Below the pieces are notes generated by a model, which worked only from the letters and a program-made list of their open reading frames with translations, made no database searches and was not told where the DNA came from. DNA of 64,000 nt, taken from the IMG/VR virus record IMGVR_UViG_3300042430_001364. The stretch is one strand, 5' to 3'. Shown here one piece after another: positions 7,351-64,000 of this stretch. Position 1 is the stretch's first letter, and each line of letters begins with the position of its first letter. The stretch is from an uncultured virus (IMG/VR IMGVR_UViG_3300042430_001364). Its lineage: Duplodnaviria > Heunggongvirae > Uroviricota > Caudoviricetes. Made by a program: the position numbers and the translations under genes.

Positions 7351-8031
7351 GTGCTGCATCGCATCAAAAAAAACATACCTTTCTGCCTGTTCTTGGGAGT
7401 GTTCTTGTACCTCCTTGGATTTTTCATTTTGGCCAAACAAAACGAGCTTTGCCCTAGCTACCATCCGTCCAAAGAATCGCGCCCAGACTTTTCATCACCA
7501 AAAAACCAGATCAAATTGAATTTTGTTTCAAATGGGTTTTTTGTAAAAAATCCGCCTTTTCAAGATTTTATTAGTTTAGCTTATAACTCCGATTCAGTTC
7601 TTGAATCATTAAACAAATGCGGCATTCCAAAAGAAGCTTTAGTTGTTATGCGCGACAATCAGTATTCAAATGTAAATTTACAATGGTTAGACAAATACTG
7701 TTCATGGTGGATAGATGTTATAGATCTTTATCAATTATCTTATCAAAAAGAAACATTTGATTGCGACAATTTCTCTGATTTATTTGTTGTTGTATATAGT
7801 TTTGCTTCACACAATCGCAGCAACAAAACCTCTGCTCAAGTCGCTGTGGCAACTGTTGTGGTAGAGCAGGTTAAAAACTTCGCTGATATATCATACGGCT
7901 CTGACTCTTGGCACTCGTTAAACTTAGTTTGGACAAGTAGCGGGTGGTTTATTGTAGAACCTCAAAACGGAACCTATATAAGTCTTGAATCTTACCCAAA
8001 CAAAAATACGATAAAGGCTATAATTTTTTAG
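7351..8031 (+). CDS. Membrane-anchored papain/transglutaminase-like protein (similar to lectin MOA C-terminal domain)
   Basis: N-terminal hydrophobic segment; FDCDNFS (Cys), WHSLN (His), VEPQ. Confidence 0.55.
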   Translation: MLHRIKKNIPFCLFLGVFLYLLGFFILAKQNELCPSYHPSKESRPDFSSPKNQIKLNFVSNGFFVKNPPFQDFISLAYNSDSVLESLNKCGIPKEALVVMRDNQYSNVNLQWLDKYCSWWIDVIDLYQLSYQKETFDCDNFSDLFVVVYSFASHNRSNKTSAQVAVATVVVEQVKNFADISYGSDSWHSLNLVWTSSGWFIVEPQNGTYISLESYPNKNTIKAIIF

Positions 8032-8036
8032 TGTAA
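8031..8036 (+). promoter_or_regulatory. GTGTAA motif (putative phage-specific promoter)
   Basis: 8 nt before ATG at 8045. Confidence 0.55.
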
Positions 8037-8044
8037 AATATTAT

Positions 8045-8818
8045 ATGGAACTTGACTTTTCACAAAACATCGCAGAAGCCAAAAAGAAAGGCTTATGGGA
8101 AAATATCAGAGACAAGAAAAAACGCATGGGCAAAAACTATCGCCCAGCAAAAAAAGGCTCGTCTGATTATCCAGATAAGAAAGCTTACGAAAAAGCCCAA
8201 GCTGCTATTGAACTTACTTATACAGAAGCGGAAAAGAAAACTTTAAATAAACCATTTCGTTTGCCATCTGGCTCCAATAAAAAGTTTGGCGTTTATGTAA
8301 AGAACCCAAAAGGAAATGTCGTTGTTGTTAAGTTTGGCGATCCAGATATGGAGATTAAACGTGACGATCCAGAGCGCAGAAAGAGTTTCCGCGCTCGCCA
8401 TAAGTGCGACACCAACCCCGGTCCAAAATGGAAAGCTCGTTATTGGAGCTGCCGTATGTGGGAAGGCGGCAAGTCCGTTACTCAGGTCACTAAAGGCTCC
8501 ATCGAAGATCAAATCCACGATCAAGAAGAGCTTCTTAAATTAAATACTGCTTTAGCCTCTGTTGAATCTGTTGATTCTGATATCGAAGATATGAAGTATC
8601 TTCACGAAGAGTATATGGAAATGTCTGAACAAACTTTGTTAAGCGTCGCAGATAAAGCCAAAGCTCTTATCGAAGCGATGAACAAAGATCCAGAAATTGC
8701 AATGGACTTTGCCGAGCCATTTATCGCAGCTAAACTGGCGCTTATGGATGATTACATGAACACTGTTTATAACTATATCATGTATCAGAAAGCTGGCGAA
8801 GAAAAATATACAGATTAA
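8045..8818 (+). CDS. Conserved basic phage protein of unknown function
   Basis: KKFGVYVKN..VKFGDPDM..RRKSFRARHKC..ARYWSCRMW motif typical of large phages. Confidence 0.6.
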   Translation: MELDFSQNIAEAKKKGLWENIRDKKKRMGKNYRPAKKGSSDYPDKKAYEKAQAAIELTYTEAEKKTLNKPFRLPSGSNKKFGVYVKNPKGNVVVVKFGDPDMEIKRDDPERRKSFRARHKCDTNPGPKWKARYWSCRMWEGGKSVTQVTKGSIEDQIHDQEELLKLNTALASVESVDSDIEDMKYLHEEYMEMSEQTLLSVADKAKALIEAMNKDPEIAMDFAEPFIAAKLALMDDYMNTVYNYIMYQKAGEEKYTD

Positions 8819-12397: not shown

Positions 12398-12403
12398 TTA
12401 GTT

Positions 12404-13336
12404 ATGCCAGTACAATACTGTATCGACAACGAGCTTAATCCTAGCAGATTAAAGATCTTCAAAGACTTTAGCGGAATCAAGTTAGCTAGAAACGAAGCTT
12501 CTTTTAGAATCAAGGACTGTCAACTTACCGCTCTTGACAAGAGTAGAGATTATTTAGATCCTTTTAGATATAAGTTTTTTGAGCTTTTCACGACTCAAGT
12601 ATTAAATTACTATAATCTTAAAGATTTAAACTTTGACTTTATGGTCAATTTTAATGACGAGACAAGCAACGAATACTTAGATGATCCAAGTAAGTTTGTT
12701 TTCGCTCGTTCAAAAAGTTCTCCGCATATTTGTGTCCCTGATTCTCATATAGGGCGAACGATTGATACCTGCTCTCGATTACCTGACTTAGATATTGAAT
12801 GGGACGCAAAACAAGATAAGGCTTGTTTCTTTGGTTCGGATACTGGTTTACCCCTTACGGAAGAGTTAACTCAAAGAGTGAGTATTTGCCAAAGATACTT
12901 TAACAGTAAAGTCGTTGACGCAAAAATAACTAATTTCACAAAGACGCCGCCAAACTCAGCTTATTCTAGTGATTTCGTAAGCATTGCTGATCAGCTCAAA
13001 TATAAATTCATTTTAAATGTAAACGGCAACACAACGTCTTGGGAGCGTTTGATTTGGACTATGGCGTCTAACTCCTTGTGCATTTACGTTCGCCCTCCAG
13101 TAGATCAAAACGACATATCTTGGTACTACCATATGTTTGATTTCGATCAAGCATTCGTTTATGTCGATGAAAACAATATAGAGTCGTGCGTAAAATTCTT
13201 GTTAGAGAATAAAGAAACTACTGCATATTTAAAACAAAGACAAAAAGTTACCGCTGAAATTCTTAGTGGCGCAGAATTCCACGCCCAATATTACGCAGGA
13301 ATCTTACAGCAATATAACAAACTTTACAATGAATAA
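12404..13336 (+). CDS. GT90 (CAP10/LpsA-like) glycosyltransferase
   Basis: W..KQDKACFFGSDTG and DQLKYKFILNVNGNTTSWERL motifs. Confidence 0.7.
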   Translation: MPVQYCIDNELNPSRLKIFKDFSGIKLARNEASFRIKDCQLTALDKSRDYLDPFRYKFFELFTTQVLNYYNLKDLNFDFMVNFNDETSNEYLDDPSKFVFARSKSSPHICVPDSHIGRTIDTCSRLPDLDIEWDAKQDKACFFGSDTGLPLTEELTQRVSICQRYFNSKVVDAKITNFTKTPPNSAYSSDFVSIADQLKYKFILNVNGNTTSWERLIWTMASNSLCIYVRPPVDQNDISWYYHMFDFDQAFVYVDENNIESCVKFLLENKETTAYLKQRQKVTAEILSGAEFHAQYYAGILQQYNKLYNE

Positions 13337-13955
13337 AGAAAATAGCGTTCAACTTATTGGTATTTATGGCGACGATCAAGTTCACGCTTGCTCGGCTTGG
13401 ACTTCTACGTCCAGAGATATTAACGAGGACAAGAAGCAGAGAATTGGGCCGCTGCTAAAAATGCTTGCCGAAAATGGGCATCATACGCCTTTTGAAAAGT
13501 CGTCGCTTCATTTCTTGGTTACTACTGACGTAGCTAGTCATATTCATTTATTGAAGCACAGAATTGGCGTTTCAATCAACGGCGAGTCTGCCAGATACAA
13601 AGAGATGAAAGAAGATAACTTCTGCGTACCTTCTGATTGGCCTGAGCATTGGAAAGAGATTCTTGAGAACTATACCAATAATGGTCTTAGACTCTATCAT
13701 AACTGCTTAGAAGATTTGGTCAAAAATCATGGCTTTGACCGTAAGCGAGCAAAAGAGTCCGCTAGATTCTTTAGAACTTACAATACGCAAGTTACTGCTG
13801 ATGTGATGTTTAATTGGAGATCGTTCTACCATTTTCTTAATCTTCGCAATAAGCCAGACGCCCAAAAGGAAATCCGAGACATTGCTTCGGAAATGCTTTC
13901 TTTGGTAAGAGTTGACGGTAAGTTCCCTTTGACGATAGAAGCTTTTGGCCTTTAA
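13329..13955 (+). CDS. thyX: Flavin-dependent thymidylate synthase
   Basis: GHHTPFE, KHRIGVSINGESARY (ThyX motif), NWRSFYHFLNLR..AQKEIR. Confidence 0.92.
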   Translation: MNKENSVQLIGIYGDDQVHACSAWTSTSRDINEDKKQRIGPLLKMLAENGHHTPFEKSSLHFLVTTDVASHIHLLKHRIGVSINGESARYKEMKEDNFCVPSDWPEHWKEILENYTNNGLRLYHNCLEDLVKNHGFDRKRAKESARFFRTYNTQVTADVMFNWRSFYHFLNLRNKPDAQKEIRDIASEMLSLVRVDGKFPLTIEAFGL

Positions 13956-13956
13956 G

Positions 13957-13962
13957 GTGTAA
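13957..13962 (+). promoter_or_regulatory. GTGTAA motif (putative phage-specific promoter)
   Basis: 9 nt before GTG at 13972. Confidence 0.55.
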
Positions 13963-13971
13963 ATATCCTAT

Positions 13972-14403
13972 GTGCCGTCTGAACTAATCAGTCTATTAGG
14001 TGGGTCTGTTGTTGGATTCATTTTTCGCTTTATGGCTGCAAAAGCCGAAGAGCAAAAGCTACGCTTTGATCGAATGATGAAAGCGATAGATAAAGCTGAT
14101 GAATCTGCCGACAAAGCCGCTAAAAGAGATGGCGACGTAGGCAAGATGGTTAGACAGTTCATTGTTGTTTCTGTTATCTTCTCTATTGTTATATCTCCTT
14201 TTCTTATGGCCCTTTTGGGCATTCCTACTTATCTTCAAGTAGATTATCAAGACGGAGGAGACATCTTAGGTTTCGTTGCAGAGAAGACTAAAACGGCTTT
14301 CGTTGAGATTTCAGGCAATTTGATCACTACTGAGATACGCCAATGCTTAATCGCAATTACAGGCTTTTACTTTGGTTCTGCTGCGGCTTCAAATAAATCT
14401 TAA
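13972..14403 (+). CDS. Membrane protein, holin-like
   Basis: Three hydrophobic segments, C-terminal ITGFYFGS motif. Confidence 0.5.
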   Translation: MPSELISLLGGSVVGFIFRFMAAKAEEQKLRFDRMMKAIDKADESADKAAKRDGDVGKMVRQFIVVSVIFSIVISPFLMALLGIPTYLQVDYQDGGDILGFVAEKTKTAFVEISGNLITTEIRQCLIAITGFYFGSAAASNKS

Positions 14404-14410
14404 AAAAGTA

Positions 14411-14416
14411 TTGACA
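14411..14416 (+). promoter_or_regulatory. Sigma70-type -35 box for the replication operon
   Basis: TTGACA starting 35 nt before ATG 14446. Confidence 0.65.
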
Positions 14417-14445
14417 GTTGGTGATAACTGCTTTCTTGTGGCCGC

Positions 14446-14898
14446 ATGGAAGAGCCATTTCAACTAGAGATTCAGTCTCCAGAGGTAGTCAAGGTTCGTA
14501 AACCTAGAAAACCAAGGAAGCCTCGCGCCGAAAGAGCACCTCGTAAACCTAGAGTCAAGAAGCCAAAACCAGCAAAGAAAGCGTCTCGTCGTGTTATCGT
14601 TGCTAGATTTGTGAGTATGCCAAAGCGCACCACCGCTGAGTTTTGGAAGAAAGAGTTTACTATTCTCAGGCAGCTTGAGGAAAGATACGGCTTTAAATTC
14701 TTGTCGGAATATGTTCCTATCAAGAAGGTTGAGAGTCTCGCTTTTTATTATGCTGATTGGAAAGCGGCGGAACTTGAAATCAAGCGCAATGAGTTTTACT
14801 ATCAGCCACAACCAACCCAAACAATCGTCTTGACAGACAAGGTTGGAGAAGATTTTAACATTAAACCTAAACCAACACTAAAGGAATTTTTATCATGA
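14446..14898 (+). CDS. Hypothetical protein with K/R/P-rich N-terminus
   Basis: KPRKPRKPRAERAPRKPRVKKPKPAKK repeat; overlaps recA start (ATGA). Confidence 0.6.
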   Translation: MEEPFQLEIQSPEVVKVRKPRKPRKPRAERAPRKPRVKKPKPAKKASRRVIVARFVSMPKRTTAEFWKKEFTILRQLEERYGFKFLSEYVPIKKVESLAFYYADWKAAELEIKRNEFYYQPQPTQTIVLTDKVGEDFNIKPKPTLKEFLS

Positions 14899-16067
14899 GC
14901 AAGAAAGAAAAAGTAAAAGAAGAAAAAGCAGAAGCAAACGTTTCGTCTAATTCTGTCCTCAAATCATTTTTGAACGACAAGAAGGAAGATCATTACAACT
15001 TTGAAGAGACTTGTAATTATAAAGTTTCTACTGGTTCTCTAAATTTAGATATGCAGACCAGCGGAGGCATTGGACCGGGCCTTCATCGGTTCGTTGGCTT
15101 TACCGAAGGCGGTAAAACATCCGCCGCTCTTGAAGTTATGCGTAACTTCTTAAATACAGTTCCAAATTCAAAAGGCTTTTTCATCAAAGCAGAAGGTCGC
15201 CTTTCTGATGAAATGCAAAAACGTTCTGGTGTTAAGTTTGTTTTTGACGCTGAATCTTGGGATGTTGGAACCTGTTTCGTATTTGAGTGCAATATTTACG
15301 AGACAGCTGTAGATGCAATGCGCCAGTTGGTTCAGTTCAACGAAGACAAGGCTAAGTATATGTTTGTTCTGGACTCTGTTGACGGATTAATTTCCAAAGG
15401 AGATTTGAACAAAAACTTTGAAGACTCTAAGAAAGTCGCTGGCGGTGCTGTAATTGCGTCGGACTTTATGAAGCGTATGTCTATTGGTCTGACCAAACGC
15501 GGTCACATGGCAATCTTTATCTCTCAAGTTAGAAGTGATATTCAACTCGACCCATATAGCAAAGCTCCTATTCGCCAAACATCCGCTACTGGTGGTAATG
15601 CTCTGCTGCACTTCGCCAATTTCATTTTCGAGTTTGAGCCTCGTTTTGAAGGCGACGTTATTCTGAAAGACCCATCAATCAAGAAATCTGATCCAATAAA
15701 GAATCCTATCATTGGTCATTACTGCAAAATCTATATCAAGAAGAGTCCAAACGAAAAAAGCAAGAATCGTATCACTTATCCGATTAAGTACGGACGCACT
15801 AATGGGCGTTCTGTTTGGCTTGAAAAAGAAATCGTAGATATGCTCTTATCTTGGGAAATGGTAGAACGCTCTGGAGCTTGGTATTATATTTCCGAAGACT
15901 TAAAGGAGATTTGTTCTTCTAACAATATCGAGATTCCAGAAAAGTTCCAAGGCGAAAACGCACTGTTCTCTTTCATTGAAGGTAATGAAAAATTAACTAA
16001 AATCCTCCACAAGCTTTTTGTGGGTATGATTTCTAGTGATCCTTCTAATGAAATTCAAAACGCTTAA
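14895..16067 (+). CDS. recA: RecA/UvsX recombinase
   Basis: STGSLNLD, GFTEGGKTS Walker A, VLDSV, ISQVR, GGNALLHFA, SGAWY. Confidence 0.9.
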   Translation: MSKKEKVKEEKAEANVSSNSVLKSFLNDKKEDHYNFEETCNYKVSTGSLNLDMQTSGGIGPGLHRFVGFTEGGKTSAALEVMRNFLNTVPNSKGFFIKAEGRLSDEMQKRSGVKFVFDAESWDVGTCFVFECNIYETAVDAMRQLVQFNEDKAKYMFVLDSVDGLISKGDLNKNFEDSKKVAGGAVIASDFMKRMSIGLTKRGHMAIFISQVRSDIQLDPYSKAPIRQTSATGGNALLHFANFIFEFEPRFEGDVILKDPSIKKSDPIKNPIIGHYCKIYIKKSPNEKSKNRITYPIKYGRTNGRSVWLEKEIVDMLLSWEMVERSGAWYYISEDLKEICSSNNIEIPEKFQGENALFSFIEGNEKLTKILHKLFVGMISSDPSNEIQNA

Positions 16068-16458
16068 TGGCAAAGAAAAATTAATTAAAAACTCTAAAAA
16101 TTTCTTAATTAATTGGAAAGCCAAATCCAGAAGCAAAGTTCAATGGAGAGTAAAACAATTTTTATTCTCTTACTGGAAACACGATATTGTCTTTGAAGAG
16201 CTTCGTGTTGCTGGAACACGTTTGTCTTTGGACTTCTACAACGCGAATAAAAAAATCGCAGTAGAAGTTCAAGGTAAACAGCACCAGCAATTTAACAAGT
16301 TTTTCCACAATAACAATCGACTCAACTGGCTCGCGCAGTTGAAGAGAGACGATTTAAAGATGAAGTTTTGCTTGACAAACGGAATCTTGCTCGTAGAGAT
16401 TTACGAAGACGAGGAAATCAACCATGAGATTTTCTCAAAACAAGGAGTAGAACTATGA
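16048..16458 (+). CDS. PD-(D/E)xK endonuclease (DUF559/Vsr-like)
   Basis: LDFYN..IAVEVQGKQH..RDDLK. Confidence 0.75.
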   Translation: MKFKTLNGKEKLIKNSKNFLINWKAKSRSKVQWRVKQFLFSYWKHDIVFEELRVAGTRLSLDFYNANKKIAVEVQGKQHQQFNKFFHNNNRLNWLAQLKRDDLKMKFCLTNGILLVEIYEDEEINHEIFSKQGVEL

Positions 16459-54358: not shown

Positions 54359-55534
54359 TTGAGAATTGCCGTTATATTTTTATTAACGGCTTTATCTCTT
54401 TTTGGTTCATCTGGTAAAATAACAGAGGCTACTGGGCCAACTCAAATTACCAGAGATAAGGATAAGATCGAGGGCAAAGCTAACGTTGGGATTGAGATGT
54501 TCGATACAATCGAAACACTTCGATCTCGCGTTGACATTTCCTTTGTGGATGACACAAGAGTTCAAATCACAGAGTTCTCTAAACTTAAGATTGATGAATT
54601 CGTTTATGATCCGTCAAGCGGCAAAGGCTCTTTGTCTATCAAAGCTGCATCAGGAACCATTAGATACACTTCTGGATTAATCGCCAAGAACAGCAAAGAA
54701 AACGTAAAGATTAAAACTCCAACCGCTGTTGTGTCAGTAAGAGGAACTGACTTTTCTATGAGCGTTGGAGAAGATGGCAAAAGTTTAATTGTTCTTTTGC
54801 CGTCGCTTCCAGCGTTAACTGGCTCGCCTCCAGTGGTAGGCTCTATCGAAGTTACAAATGCGAGCGGAACAGTAGTGTTGAATCAGGCGTATCAAGCCAC
54901 TTTCATTTCTTCCGCTTTCTCTAATCCAACGTTGCCAGTTATTCTTGATTTAACCGATGAATCAAAGATCAATAATAATCTTCTTGTAGAGAGTAATAAA
55001 TCTATTACGAAGAATAGCAAAGAAACAAAAAAAGTTTCTTCTGAAAAAGATAAAGTTGAAGACAAGAAAGACGACAAATCAAATAAGAAAGCTGGAGACA
55101 CTAAAACTCAAGTGGCGCAACAAACTGCTGCTGAATCAGTAGCAGAAGCCGCAAGCACAACAACAGATGCCCCGCCTCCAGCTAAACAAGAAACAGAAGT
55201 TGCCCAAATAAAACTAGATGCTAAAATAGAAGCTCCAACAGTTGAAGCTCCAAAAGTAGAAGTTCAAACACCAGTGGTTGTTAAAGAAGTTCCTAAAATT
55301 GAAGTTCCTTCGATCACGAATCCAATTCAGACAAATAATATAACATCAGGAACAACTACCGTTAACAACGGATTCACTACTGATGGAAAGTACGCTTCAT
55401 TATATTTATCTACTGATAAAGGTGTAATCAGATTTACCACCAAATACGACGCTAACTCTACCGTTACCGTTAACGGTCAAGCTTATGTTTTAAACTTTGG
55501 GGAAAAAAGTAAAGTTTACATTACTCAGAGATGA
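54359..55534 (+). CDS. Periplasmic FecR-domain protein with long low-complexity linker
   Basis: Signal peptide; FVDDTRVQITEFSKLKIDEFVYDP, IKTPTAVVSVRGTDF; K/E/A/P-rich tail. Confidence 0.85.
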   Translation: MRIAVIFLLTALSLFGSSGKITEATGPTQITRDKDKIEGKANVGIEMFDTIETLRSRVDISFVDDTRVQITEFSKLKIDEFVYDPSSGKGSLSIKAASGTIRYTSGLIAKNSKENVKIKTPTAVVSVRGTDFSMSVGEDGKSLIVLLPSLPALTGSPPVVGSIEVTNASGTVVLNQAYQATFISSAFSNPTLPVILDLTDESKINNNLLVESNKSITKNSKETKKVSSEKDKVEDKKDDKSNKKAGDTKTQVAQQTAAESVAEAASTTTDAPPPAKQETEVAQIKLDAKIEAPTVEAPKVEVQTPVVVKEVPKIEVPSITNPIQTNNITSGTTTVNNGFTTDGKYASLYLSTDKGVIRFTTKYDANSTVTVNGQAYVLNFGEKSKVYITQR

Positions 55535-57579
55535 AGAAATATAAAATCTATACCGCAATAGCTTCGCTGTTAGTTTTGATCTGCCTCTTAACTTTAAGAG
55601 TTAAAGACCCATTTTTCGTTGAGACTGCAAGACTAAAAACGCTAGATTACTATCAAATCACTCAAGAGAAAGTAAAAAGCGAAAGTGTTGTAGTTGTTGA
55701 GATAGATGAGAAAACTCTTGAGAAGCATGGTCAATGGCCTTTCCCAAGACAAATCTTAGCTAGCGCAATAACAAAAGCATTTGATAACGGCGCAGAGATT
55801 GTTGTGTTGCCAATTATCTTTGCTGAGAACGACAGATTCAATGGAGACTCTGCGCTAAAAGAAACTTTCGGCAAATATCCTGTAATCATTAGTCAGTCTG
55901 CGGCAAATAAAGGAAAAGGCTCGCCTGTGCCTAGAGGAGTGTCAGTAATCGGCGGCGGCATAGATGAGTGGCTATTTGATTATCCTGCGGCGATTGGGCC
56001 AACAAAAGAGCTTGGCGAAGCTGCGGCTGGCGTTGGTATGCTGCTAACAGCTCCAGAAGTTGACGGCGTAGTTAGAAGATTGCCGCTTATCGTGCAAGTG
56101 AACAAAGAACTTTATCCAACACTGCCATTAGAAATCTTGCGCGTAGCTTCTAATGATCCAAGCTATCAAGCAAAAGTTAATCAATCTGGCGTAGCTGCAA
56201 TTCGCATTCCCAAATTTAAAACAATTAAAACTGACGAGAATGGGCGAGTTTGGTTGAACTTCAAATACACTTTTGATTCTTTTTCCTTCACCAAAGAAGA
56301 TTGGTCTGAGGTTAAAGGCAAAATTGTTATGATTGCGCCAACGGCAGAAGGTCTTTCAAACACTGTTGCAACATCAGTTAACATTAAGAATGGCTACGAA
56401 ATTCCTTTGTTTGCCGCACAAATGCTTTTAGATGACTCAAGATTAGAAAGACCATCAGAGTTTAACACTTACGAGATTCTTTATGGTTTAGTCGCGGCGT
56501 TAGTTGTTATCGTCGCTTTCATTTGGCTGAACTACTTAATTTGTGCTGGGCTATCTATCGCTTTGATGATTGCGCCTGTGGCCTATGGCGTCAAAGCTTT
56601 TAGCAACGGACTTCTTTTTGATTACAGTTGGATAGTTGCCGCTCTTTTCATCTGCTTTTCTGTGTCTGCGTTTATGCGTTTCATCAATGAATTTAAACAG
56701 AAACAACAAATTAGAAAGCAGTTTGAACACTATCTTGCTCCTGCAATGGTCAAAAAGCTGCAATCTAATCCAGAGCTTTTAAAACTTGGCGGCGAAACCA
56801 AAGACTTGACGATCTTATTCTCTGATGTTCGCGGATTTACAGCACTTAGCGAGCACTTTAAAACTGACCCGCAAGGTTTAACTTCTCTAATAAACCGTTA
56901 CATGACTCCTATGCTAAAATTAGTTATGAGCAAAGATGGAACTGTTGATAAACTGATTGGAGATGCAGTAATGGCTTTTTGGAATGCTCCTGTTGATGTT
57001 GCTCGCCACAAAGAATTAGCTATCGAGTGTGCCGTTGAGATGTTCACGAAACTTGATGAGCTAAATAAACAACTTGCATTGGAAAAATTACCGCAACTTT
57101 CGATTGGCGTAGGAGTCAATTCTGGTTCAGTTGTAGTTGGAAACATGGGTTCCGAAAATCGCTTTGACTATACTTGCCTTGGAGACGCTGTTAATCTTTC
57201 GTCGCGTTTAGAAGGCCAAAGCAAGCCTTACCACGTTGAAATTGTTATCGGCGAGCAAACCGTGAAAGGCATCGAGAACTCTTTCAATTTCCTAGAGTTA
57301 GACAACATTGCCGTCAAAGGCAAAAAAGAAGGCGTCAAAATCTATACCGTAATTGCGAACGACGAGAAGGCAAATAAGATTGTTTCTCATCACAAGAAGA
57401 TGATGGAGTTCTACTACGAGATGAACTGGCAAGAAGCGGAAATCTATTTGACTAGACTAAAAACGGAAAACTCAAAGATGATGAGGTACTACGAGATGAT
57501 GGAAAGCCGAATTTCTGAACTCAAAACCGCAAACTTGCCTAAAGATTGGGATGGCGTTTATCACGCAACTAGCAAGTAA
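55531..57579 (+). CDS. CHASE2-domain class III adenylate cyclase
   Basis: VVVEIDE..GQWPFPR, DGVVRR (CHASE2); 3 TMs; LFSDVRGFT, DKLIGDAVMAFWNAP, GNMGS..DYTCLGDAVNLSSRLE, VKGK. Confidence 0.93.
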   Translation: MKKYKIYTAIASLLVLICLLTLRVKDPFFVETARLKTLDYYQITQEKVKSESVVVVEIDEKTLEKHGQWPFPRQILASAITKAFDNGAEIVVLPIIFAENDRFNGDSALKETFGKYPVIISQSAANKGKGSPVPRGVSVIGGGIDEWLFDYPAAIGPTKELGEAAAGVGMLLTAPEVDGVVRRLPLIVQVNKELYPTLPLEILRVASNDPSYQAKVNQSGVAAIRIPKFKTIKTDENGRVWLNFKYTFDSFSFTKEDWSEVKGKIVMIAPTAEGLSNTVATSVNIKNGYEIPLFAAQMLLDDSRLERPSEFNTYEILYGLVAALVVIVAFIWLNYLICAGLSIALMIAPVAYGVKAFSNGLLFDYSWIVAALFICFSVSAFMRFINEFKQKQQIRKQFEHYLAPAMVKKLQSNPELLKLGGETKDLTILFSDVRGFTALSEHFKTDPQGLTSLINRYMTPMLKLVMSKDGTVDKLIGDAVMAFWNAPVDVARHKELAIECAVEMFTKLDELNKQLALEKLPQLSIGVGVNSGSVVVGNMGSENRFDYTCLGDAVNLSSRLEGQSKPYHVEIVIGEQTVKGIENSFNFLELDNIAVKGKKEGVKIYTVIANDEKANKIVSHHKKMMEFYYEMNWQEAEIYLTRLKTENSKMMRYYEMMESRISELKTANLPKDWDGVYHATSK

Positions 57580-62417: not shown

Positions 62418-62837
62418 ATGTACGCATCAAACTATAGTAAAAACCTCATTACAGCGGAAGAGAAAGTAGCCGAGTTAATGAAGCAACGTGACGCACGCGA
62501 GGCCGAGTATATTCGCGGCGCACGAATGGTTGCCGAGTCCGCCTCCGCGTGGCAAGTCCGCGCCGAGAAAGCCGAAGAGCGTCTTGAATGGCTTGAAAGA
62601 TTTCTTCAAGCTGGAGGCACGAGCATAAATACCGTGTCTTATTATACTGTTGAAAATCATCCTGATGACACCGATGAAACACGTTTCAATATGCCATTTA
62701 AAATCGGCATGAGTGTGGAAACTGAGAATCGTGGTTGCTACCGGTGGGTTGAGTTTAGTAACGGCGCAAAAGGTATTTGCCCAGCTATTGATGCCGCTAA
62801 AATCAAATACGATGAATGGCGGCGAGAACAATTCTAA
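62418..62837 (+). CDS. Hypothetical protein
   Basis: Coiled-coil N-terminus, RLEWLE..AIDAA pattern. Confidence 0.55.
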   Translation: MYASNYSKNLITAEEKVAELMKQRDAREAEYIRGARMVAESASAWQVRAEKAEERLEWLERFLQAGGTSINTVSYYTVENHPDDTDETRFNMPFKIGMSVETENRGCYRWVEFSNGAKGICPAIDAAKIKYDEWRREQF

Positions 62838-62856
62838 AAAAAGTCATTAGAAACAC

Positions 62857-62902
62857 TTGACATCTAATGTAAAATAAGTAGGTTCTCTTTTGTTCTTTCA
62901 CA
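62857..62902 (+). promoter_or_regulatory. -35 box plus boxA-like antitermination element heading the RNA array
   Basis: TTGACA at 62857; TGTTCTTTCACA at 62891 (two mismatches to boxA TGCTCTTTAACA). Confidence 0.55.
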
Positions 62903-62904
62903 TC

Positions 62905-63085
62905 TTCCCTTCTGTGTTTATGCAGACCGCTGTATTCGCGTTTATAAAGTAAGCTCCATGTTGCTACGAAACTGGGTGATCTCTTGAAAAGATTCACGTT
63001 TCTTTACATCGTTTAAGAATTAGCGCACACAAGTGCATTCATCTTCTGGAAATGTTCTGGAAGACTTGTGTGGCAGGGGGAACCA
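62905..63085 (+). ncRNA. Unrecognised structured RNA 1, ending in CCA
   Basis: 5' TTCCCTTCTG pairs with 3' CAGGGGGAA followed by CCA; internal hairpins CACACAAG/CTTGTGTG and TCTTCTGGAA/TTCTGGAAGA. Confidence 0.5.
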
Positions 63086-63087
63086 AT

Positions 63088-63297
63088 TTTGAATAGCAGC
63101 TCGGAATGTAGAAGGTTGTTTCCATCTTCGGTACGAGCACGGGGTCTAACCGTCAGCGGAAAAGCATGGAAGTCACGAAAAGCCTCTGGGTTCATAACAG
63201 CACGTTTATGGGGAAATGTTAAACGTGTTGGAACCTATGCGTAAATAAGAAACTCGCTGAAGTGTAGTTATATAAAGCAAAACTACATCTATTCAAA
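63088..63297 (+). ncRNA. Unrecognised structured RNA 2 (multi-branch junction)
   Basis: Closing stem TTTGAATAG/CTATTCAAA; arms GCTCG/CGAGC, ACGG/CCGT, CAGCG/CGCTG, TGTAGTT/AACTACA; long inner hairpin 63187-63237. Confidence 0.55.
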
Positions 63298-63360
63298 TAA
63301 TTTAACATACACAGTAGTCCTCTTGATTCACGTCAATGACAATAATGGCTGTGTGCAATT

Positions 63361-63427
63361 TCCCTACCTGCATTGAAAGTCGGGTTCATCCGTGAAAGCA
63401 GAAATGCTTCTAGGTGCATGGTGGGGA
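63361..63427 (+). ncRNA. Unrecognised small three-way-junction RNA
   Basis: TCCCTACC/GGTGGGGA and TGCAT/GTGCA closing stems; CGGG-ttca-TCCG and AAGCA-gaaa-TGCTT hairpins. Confidence 0.45.
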
Positions 63428-63449
63428 TTCAATTTAAAATTTAATTTTT

Positions 63450-63524
63450 GCGGACGTGGTATATTAGTAGTGCAGCAGCCTCCAAAACTGCCTTATGAGG
63501 GTGCGATTCCCTCCGTCCGTGCCA
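63450..63524 (+). tRNA. trnW: tRNA-Trp (anticodon CCA)
   Basis: Acceptor GCGGACG/CGTCCGT, D stem GTAT/GTGC, anticodon loop CTCCAAA, T stem GAGGG/CCCTC, encoded 3' CCA. Confidence 0.82.
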
Positions 63525-63599
63525 ATTTCAAACACGAACTAAAAAATCGCAAATAAGATATACATTAGAACCAAACGCGAACACTTTTAGGGCAAATAA

Positions 63600-64000
63600 A
63601 TGATAGAGATAGACTTACATCCACAGCTCGTCGCAACCGCATTAGAATTAGCGGAAGATAAGCCAAAATTAAAAAACTCCATACGAGATGGTGATGGCTG
63701 GAAAATCGCCATGATCTCTGACCTAATGGTTCAAGAAGCTCTGGGCGGCGAAATCATTTCTCACGAAGACTACAACTCTGATTGGAAGTCAAACAAAGGA
63801 AAACGCTTTGAGATCAAAGCTAAAGAAAGAACAGTTAAGCCAAAGCCCCATTACAACTGCACCGTTTATCAGTTCAATACCTTACAGAAGTGCGATTACT
63901 ATTTATTCACCAGTATTCTCAAAGACTATTCTAAAGGTTACATTCTTGGTTACATGAATAAAAAATCATTTTTAAATCAATCTTTGAACTGCAAAAAAGG
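63600..64000 (+). CDS. Putative PD-(D/E)xK-like phage nuclease, runs off the window end
   Basis: My translation: MIEIDLHPQ..DYNSD..FEIKAKERTVKPKPHYNCTV..QKCDYYLF..GYILGY; absent from the ORF track because no stop lies in the window. Confidence 0.55.
   Translation, partial: MIEIDLHPQLVATALELAEDKPKLKNSIRDGDGWKIAMISDLMVQEALGGEIISHEDYNSDWKSNKGKRFEIKAKERTVKPKPHYNCTVYQFNTLQKCDYYLFTSILKDYSKGYILGYMNKKSFLNQSLNCKK

Follow-up and report, generated by a model that had tools for sequence, protein, structure and literature searches.

A non-coding array of four folded RNAs and a tRNA-Trp gene in a large tailed phage, built of singly gained and lost cassettes

Small non-tRNA RNAs, RNAC and RNAD, come from the tRNA region of phage T4, and are described as being of unknown function (PMC3014915, PMC9697503). 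GOLLD and ROOL RNAs, for which the cited reports likewise give no known function, are encoded by phages near tRNA islands, and form cages via kissing loops (PMC12286853, PMC12990946). They are 550-830 nt long, with 7-18 intermolecular motifs (PMC12990946), and their kissing loops, at first known as predictions from covariation, turned out to connect separate molecules (PMC12286853). The manA RNA, about 215 nt long in S-CREM1 (PMC9964418), is found in T4-like phages, has a possible pseudoknot and is likely a 5' leader of metabolic genes (PMC2864571). Theta ribozymes, which are HDV-like, adjoin phage tRNA genes (PMC10879173). Finally, an automated catalogue of viral csRNAs lists 8,495 models from IMG/VR, of 29-151 nt (PMC10690425).

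In this study, we analysed a stretch of 64,000 nt (hereafter the window) from a large, tailed, uncultured phage with a GC content of 38.5%. Its genes include those for PolIII-alpha, DnaB, RecA, a class I ribonucleotide reductase, a ClpB-like ATPase and minor tail protein L; a phage-encoded CHASE2 adenylate/guanylate cyclase was also noticed at 55531-57579. An earlier note, made from the letters of the window, had described the region 62857-63524 as an array of structured RNAs co-transcribed with tRNA-Trp. We confirmed that this region codes for no protein and holds four folded RNAs unrelated to one another, named U1 to U4, together with tRNA-Trp (Table 1). As the note had it, the gap of about 760 nt holds no credible gene: the flanking open reading frames end at 62837 and start at 63600, and only overlapping frames of 54-64 aa touch it. 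The layout of the units, their AATTT-type spacers and the tRNA behind them was likewise found as described when the coordinates were checked. A protein-coding reading of U1 and U2 was rejected on account of frame-breaking net indels relative to the window, of a length not divisible by 3, in 11 of the 25 homologues of U2 and 11 of the 18 of U1.

Table 1. Features of the RNA array and of its flanks, in window coordinates.
Feature	Position	Strand	Basis
Putative host-type promoter, TTGACA-16 nt-TAGGTT	62857-62884	+	Sequence; putative function
Second promoter candidate, TAGAAA-16 nt-TAAAAT, overlapping the first	62848-62875	+	Promoter scan, chance level
Putative boxA-like antitermination element	62891-62902	+	10/12 identical to E. 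coli rrn boxA
U1, 181-nt four-way-junction RNA	62905-63085	+	19 sequences, 65-100% identical
U2, 210-nt multibranch RNA with two long arms	63088-63297	+	26 sequences, 80-100% identical
U3, ~50-nt hairpin with large conserved asymmetric internal loop	63303-63357	+	27 sequences
U4, 67-nt three-way junction	63361-63427	+	40 viral loci, 16 distinct cores
tRNA-Trp(CCA), CCA end encoded	63450-63524	+	ARAGORN; Rfam, 47.9 bits
Bipartite repeat, two copies (AAACRYGAAY, 9 nt, NCAAATAA)	63529-63599	+	Sequence; ends at next start codon

Like RNAC and RNAD, U1-U4 are small non-tRNA RNAs in a tRNA-type region of a phage: they are non-coding units within or beside phage tRNA clusters, on the same strand, with a conserved self-closed structure for U1, U2 and U4, and a weakly supported one for U3. 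Unlike in T4, there are four such RNAs for a single tRNA here; they are retained in relatives that have no tRNA, and their turnover is that of cassettes. A blastn search of U1-U4 against 50,697 phage records, T4 included, returned nothing outside the tRNA, and thus no homology to RNAC or RNAD. The genomic setting is that of GOLLD and ROOL, and U2 has a kissing loop supported by covariation; however, the units of this array have 50-210 nt, against more than 500 nt for those RNAs, and at most one supported long-range contact, and they gave no match to the Rfam GOLLD and ROOL models. U2 is similar in size to manA and is also found in T4-like phages, but it sits between tRNA genes or other RNA cassettes, and U1-U4 did not match the manA model (RF01745) at E up to 10. 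As with theta ribozymes, U1-U4 are small structured RNAs by a phage tRNA gene; unlike these, all four units lie 5' of the tRNA and no HDV-like fold was found, there being no Rfam HDV match and 0 hits for an HDV-like descriptor, run without a positive control. Concerning the csRNA catalogue (PMC10690425), the contig identifiers and motifs that we tried do not occur in its files other than the alignments and positions; the catalogue may already contain U3, U4 or portions of U1 and U2 as entries with no description attached.

Searches against other known RNAs were consistent with the earlier note, which could not place the units among tmRNA, RNase P, SRP or 6S RNAs: none of these was matched (Rfam models, ARAGORN), and no unit or homologue matched any Rfam family, even at E up to 0.5-10. 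In the gap between the flanking frames, ARAGORN and Rfam identified tRNA-Trp alone, and a permissive Rfam scan gave three additional chance-level matches, none over a unit. U1-U4 match no tRNA model (ARAGORN, Rfam). Core-motif patterns for hammerhead, twister, pistol, hatchet and hairpin ribozymes gave no match on the + strand, and one relaxed hammerhead pattern occurs on the - strand only; patterns for SRP, RNase P, Y RNA and box C/D RNAs gave no match either. For Y RNA/YrlA, the Ro-site motif is absent, the TROVE family is found in 0 of 5 virus records (only one of them complete), and weak YrlA matches in homologue loci were discarded, as they overlap tRNA genes rather than units. A possible resemblance between part of U2 and the c-di-GMP-I aptamer was also dropped, as it had no Rfam support at E up to 10. 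Likeness of U1-U4 to 16S, 23S and 5S rRNA, at the level of sequence only, reached a best p of 0.05 among 16 tests, and the additional cassettes U5 and U6 (see below) were not above shuffles either; the positive control, a cassette with a uL11 site, gave p <= 0.01. Among titles and opening abstracts of the open-access literature, we found no paper describing U1-U4, bearing in mind that word searches cannot find an unnamed RNA. The kind of locus is known; the families, their independence from tRNAs and the exchange of cassettes across lineages are the new part.

Single-sequence folding, computed on the unit boundaries set by the earlier note, gave z-scores of -2.3 (U1), -3.6 (U2), -1.1 (U3, not significant) and -3.0 (U4). 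The note had taken the many G-U pairs as a sign of selection at the RNA level. From one sequence this argument is weak, because minus-strand scores are nearly equal for U1 (-2.2), U2 (-3.5) and U4 (-2.8); the matter is settled by the comparison of homologues, in which covariation is present in U1, U2 and U4 and weak in U3. The RNA level and the + strand are fixed by the fact that one-sided pair changes pass through G-U pairs. As judged from these alignments, U1, U2 and U4 are shown to be under selection for RNA structure on the + strand, and we have very little doubt that real functional RNAs are encoded at this locus. Covariation shuffles ignore kinship, and the structures were derived from the same sequences, so that counts of events on trees were added; for U1, U2 and U3, these trees were built from the same alignment columns as the structures.

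In U1, 16 of the 49 pairs are changed on both sides among the 19 sequences and 99.8% of cells are paired, with 19 compensatory, 27 one-sided and 2 breaking events on the tree (46 pair-keeping events versus 2 breaks). The molecule is closed by an acceptor-like helix of 8 bp followed by a 3' NCCA, the same punctuation as that of the array tRNAs: 3' ends read TCCA in 10 sequences, ACCA in 8 and TTCA in 1, i.e. NCCA in 18/19. A three-way inner domain of ~80 nt (~62934-63020) is optional, and a short loop is found instead in 99-nt forms. A 3-bp pseudoknot is possible between 62921-62923 and 63035-63037, positions whose invariance leaves it without covariation support.

The U2 alignment comprised 26 distinct full-length rows, two rows cut by contig ends being excluded. 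Twelve of its 58 pairs are two-sided and 99% of cells are paired, which was reached in 0 of 500 shuffles; the tree holds 19 compensatory, 37 one-sided and 6 breaking events, hence 56 pair-keeping events versus 6 breaks. The loops of the two arms (63117-63123 and 63212-63218) pair in a predicted 7-bp kissing interaction that includes 2 compensatory pairs. In 9 of the 26 rows the outermost pair is disrupted, and a second one is broken in 2 rows, which re-pair in a shifted register. The mean energy of the loop duplex is -5.5 kcal/mol for cognate loops versus -3.6 for 30 non-cognate combinations, and neither loop is self-complementary.

U3 has a mean column identity of 94%, with 1 of 13 pairs two-sided and, on the tree, 1 compensatory, 4 one-sided and 4 breaking events. 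Its hairpin is conserved, but the fold has weak covariation support, a correction to the earlier note, which had counted U3 among the self-contained folded units. In other phages, U3 is found alone between tRNA genes, and it recurs in most arrays examined. U4 has a conserved core (63374-63413), the invariance of which was imposed by the search pattern, a possible UGAA/UUCA pseudoknot, and stems P1 and P3, which vary freely and were left unspecified by the pattern. These stems are paired in 95% (P1) and 98% (P3) of cells, versus at most 84% in 1000 row shuffles. The GC content of U4 loci is 38-61% (11 inspected), and 14 of 40 have no tRNA within 800 nt. U4 frequently comes immediately before a tRNA gene (for Thr, Gly, Trp or Glu), and sometimes just before a start codon, ending ~8 nt 5' of the ATG in one small-phage group. 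An int-alpA RNA (RF02996, above the gathering score) was noticed ~640 nt from a distant U4, at L233:1479-1544 on the - strand. U2, U3 and U4 do not end in CCA.

The protein encoded downstream of the array led to 63 viral loci, 19 at 95-100% identity and 44 more distant. Among the close relatives, 17 could be compared, the other two having no upstream DNA, and six arrangements were found. The order of the window, U1-U2-U3-U4-tRNA-Trp, is present in 2 relatives (possibly the window's own genome), and 2 others, L001 and L003, keep U1-U4 without any tRNA. The remaining ones have U1-U5-U3-U4-tRNA-Gly (5 relatives), the same with a short U1 (6 relatives), U1-U6-U2-U3-tRNA-Gly (1 relative) or U4-tRNA-Gly alone (1 relative). 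This shows that the units are independent cassettes, each gained, lost or replaced singly. The tie to tRNA-Trp made in the earlier note proved to be incidental, with tRNA-Gly in its place in 13 of the 17 relatives and no tRNA in 2. U5 (L007:3509-3657) and U6 (L018:3406-3540) are two more uncatalogued folded cassettes, not present in the window, which replace or join U2; the frame of U6 is constant, and its inner part varies widely in length.

Exact DNA patterns, which reach close relatives only and fix the letters that they contain, located U2 at 33 viral loci and at 21 metagenome loci, one of these metagenome matches being due to chance, U1 in 23 and 30 loci (one by chance), U3 in 38 loci, and U4 in 17, 18 and 40 loci, counts that overlap and include repeat samplings of one phage. 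Most viral U2 loci (28/33) lie among at least three tRNA genes, and no mixed strands were seen in the 73 loci examined. In other phages, the units directly adjoin CCA-ending tRNA genes on either side and have the same U-rich spacers. Two such long arrays hold 53 + strand tRNAs, every one of which ends in CCA, and the flanks are AU-rich (87% and 91% AT). Distant U1 or U2 paralogues were not found in long arrays past the clear members. In cellular genome contigs, the U2 exact pattern, limited to close relatives, gave 2 matches, both due to chance (9.8 and 8.1 bits, model R1), and among cultured phages no carrier of U1-U4 was found, matches being to tRNA or due to chance.

An unrelated T4-like phage, G005 (140 kb), carries all five elements in its own tRNA array, with identities of 84-95%. 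Gp23 and PolB are encoded both by this genome and by a complete one of 297 kb (G004), neither of which matches the PolIII-alpha of the window. In G005, tRNA-Trp, U1, U2 and U3 form a block (identities of 70/74, 149/177, 197/210 and 50/53, respectively), and U4 (66/70) lies ~2 kb upstream of it. The simplest reading of these identities is a recent exchange between phage lineages. The G005 array with all five elements also encodes a tmRNA and 23 tRNAs within the 11 kb examined (L217, reverse complement, 7779-8147).

Other elements of such arrays were noticed. A cassette of ~270 nt is a frequent neighbour of U2 (L081:486-761 on the - strand, L093:947-1220 on the + strand, and many other array loci). 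Both of its ends copy the uL11-binding site of 23S rRNA, the 5' end aligning to 23S positions 1054-1088, so that mimicry does occur in such arrays. This 5' end also matches an unannotated intergenic gap in the jumbo phages Serratia BF, Erwinia pEa_SNUABM and Pseudomonas Astolliot; the copy of Serratia phage BF is at L222:4981-5274, and these cultured phages offer a testable carrier. Two close relatives, L214 (G002, reverse complement, ~14500-16200) and L215 (G003, reverse complement, ~12400-15000), have more small tRNA genes behind TTGAC-type promoters, as well as non-coding regions with short tandem repeats, possibly an origin or a genome end.

The array opens, as the earlier note had it, with TTGACA (62857-62862) and a boxA-like 12-mer. 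TTGACA is retained in 8/8 leader variants compared, and a promoter is plausible there from the sequence. The promoter scan did not call this site, and its 10 calls in 4 kb are close to chance (9.4); 9 of the 31 + strand TTGACA sites of the window have an A...T hexamer 16-17 nt on. The boxA-like match is 11/12 in 2 of the 8 leader variants and 9-10/12 in the rest, the 3' part being variable. A similar GTTCTTT leader lies 5' of U4 in phage locus L073, the layout of which is alike (- strand, ~1170-1585): the leader and U4 are followed by more folded units ending in CCA, a degenerate tRNA among them. At the other end of the array, a terminator scan found no + strand terminator 3' of the tRNA and before the gene at 63600.

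In the tRNA-Trp, G takes the place of the usual U55, and one pair of the anticodon stem is a C-A mismatch. The tRNA is 95-97% identical to the tRNA-Trp of T4-like arrays, which has U-A at the mismatched pair. With this mismatch, and the gene being deleted in L001 and L003, the allele found here may be decaying. The bipartite repeat that follows, with its variable 9-nt middle, is present twice at this place, the only copies in the window, and 2-3 times in relatives, but not upstream of 8 inspected distant homologues of the downstream gene; it is probably not part of the RNA array, and perhaps consists of operator sites. The downstream gene encodes a 167-aa protein, the nearest named look-alikes of which are restriction-endonuclease domains. 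A link between the units and this nuclease-like gene was rejected, since 0 of 44 homologues at 35-55% identity carry any unit.

Part of the stretch was present in 14 sequencing runs, 13 of them recorded as RNA, none with half of the words. Four runs were inspected, all as contigs, which give no ends, strand or level. The sole contig of run X2 corresponds to 62921-63281, and therefore spans the U1-U2 spacer, with 15 differences; contigs of runs X1 and X3 hold the array plus flanking genes. These RNA contigs carry alleles of a relative. The array sequence is thus present in freshwater RNA libraries, probably from relatives. Position 63281 was rejected as an RNA end: two runs stop there, but one ends in adapter. 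In one X3 contig, the end of U2 is joined to U4 and U3 is skipped (window 63298-63357), possibly a seventh arrangement.

The best reading of the locus is a stable-RNA mini-operon, in which four small-RNA genes, independent of one another, are combined with a single tRNA gene. Precursors of tRNAs are cut by RNase E and RNase P. The earlier proposal of a stable-RNA operon processed like a tRNA array is supported by the context of the homologues: it predicts flush placement between CCA-ending tRNA genes with U-rich spacers, as seen in other phages. Co-transcription and discrete products are still inferred. One precursor would start at the sigma70-type promoter, and perhaps be antiterminated at the boxA-like site; host enzymes would cleave it within the AU-rich spacers and then trim the pieces, as in tRNA arrays and for T4 RNAC/RNAD; the products would be free RNAs whose 5' and 3' ends are paired. 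We consider tRNA-like processing of the array highly probable, and with equal confidence expect a single sigma70-type precursor to be cut and trimmed into free RNAs.

These free RNAs might act in trans, as abundant decoys or mimics occupying host RNA-binding or RNA-cutting proteins during infection. U1 would display a tRNA-like acceptor helix with NCCA, U2 a compact fold locked by the kissing loop, U3 a single conserved protein-binding loop and U4 a small conserved junction, and the changing set of cassettes would track the changing defence repertoires of hosts. This role is suggested, indirectly, by cassette turnover, exchange between lineages, the neighbouring cassette that mimics rRNA at sequence level, and the acceptor-like NCCA end of U1. 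In known conflicts, the dosage of phage tRNAs neutralises Septu, a tRNA-cutting defence (PMC13096335), and the defence nuclease Cas12a3 cuts any acceptor stem carrying a 3' CCA (PMC12851939). On the other hand, U1-U4 show no convincing sequence likeness to rRNA, U2, U3 and U4 lack a CCA end, and no + strand terminator was found 3' of the tRNA. A patchy record of gain and loss is also what weakly selected or hitch-hiking elements would show, U4 is also found away from tRNAs, and the four units need not share one role. If processing is tRNA-like, a decoy or mimic role would have slightly less than an even chance; for such a trans-acting role in phage-host conflict overall, our confidence is lower still, and the proposal is a tentative one.

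Among other readings, the larger units, U2 above all, could be small RNA-only assembling RNAs like GOLLD and ROOL, intermolecular kissing giving dimer or ring scaffolds. The covarying 7-bp loop-loop helix of U2 would fit, as would the common genomic setting and the fact that the covariation-predicted loops of GOLLD and ROOL were intermolecular (PMC12286853); but one supported long-range contact in 210 nt compares poorly with 7-18 motifs in 550-830 nt (PMC12990946), the U2 loops are not self-complementary, and covariation cannot separate intra- from intermolecular pairing, which makes this reading unlikely. We judge it improbable that the units work in cis on their transcript, whether by signalling antitermination or stability of the long non-coding operon (U3 together with the boxA-like site) or by serving as a leader of the downstream gene (U4). 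The boxA-like leader, the recurrence of U3 in most arrays, the U4 copies ending ~8 nt before an ATG and the missing terminator before 63600 would fit such a role, but unit order and neighbours vary freely, none of the 44 more distant downstream-gene homologues carries any unit, and the paired ends and NCCA of U1 point to an excised product.

At least one unit, most likely U4, might instead be a catalytic RNA of a new class, cutting or processing the precursor, as theta ribozymes located by phage tRNAs provide a precedent (PMC10879173). U4 has the size and design of a small ribozyme, a fixed junction core with freely varying stems, and its frequent position just 5' of a tRNA gene is suitable. 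Against this stand the absence of a match to Rfam ribozymes, of matches to known core motifs on the + strand and of hits for the HDV-like descriptor, the maintenance of U4 where the tRNA is deleted (L001, L003), and ends that pair mutually like those of a finished product; this reading appears quite improbable. Lastly, the units could be decayed tRNAs, or passengers of recombining tRNA blocks with little function of their own. Degenerate tRNAs do exist in the same arrays, U3 has the outline of an armless tRNA with 4 pair-breaking versus 5 pair-keeping events, and the U1-U2-U3 block order is kept in G005. However, the ratios of pair-keeping events to breaks (56:6 in U2, 46:2 in U1), the lack of match to tRNA models, and the loss of the tRNA with retention of the units in L001 and L003 largely refute this for U1, U2 and U4, and as an account of the array it is very unlikely.

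Taking the decoy reading further, phages might draw on a common, mobile pool of small-RNA cassettes, which would be inserted into stable-RNA operons and swapped across unrelated lineages like anti-defence genes. The present locus would be a nearly tRNA-free operon assembled from this pool. U1 would be a tRNA decoy that does not decode, has a CCA tail and carries an exchangeable inner domain, and U4 would represent a new class of small ribozyme or aptamer. As a whole, this picture is speculative, and we would rather bet against it than for it.

To the phage tRNA-region RNAs known since T4 RNAC and RNAD, this locus adds four families without Rfam match and with supported folds. Such RNAs are selected without tRNAs, and turn over singly among near-identical phages; RNA cassettes appear to cross between a PolIII-type tailed phage and T4-like phages. 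U1-U4 are short enough for in vitro synthesis, so that oligomer, cleavage and binding tests are direct. One-by-one turnover is the pattern expected of conflict genes.
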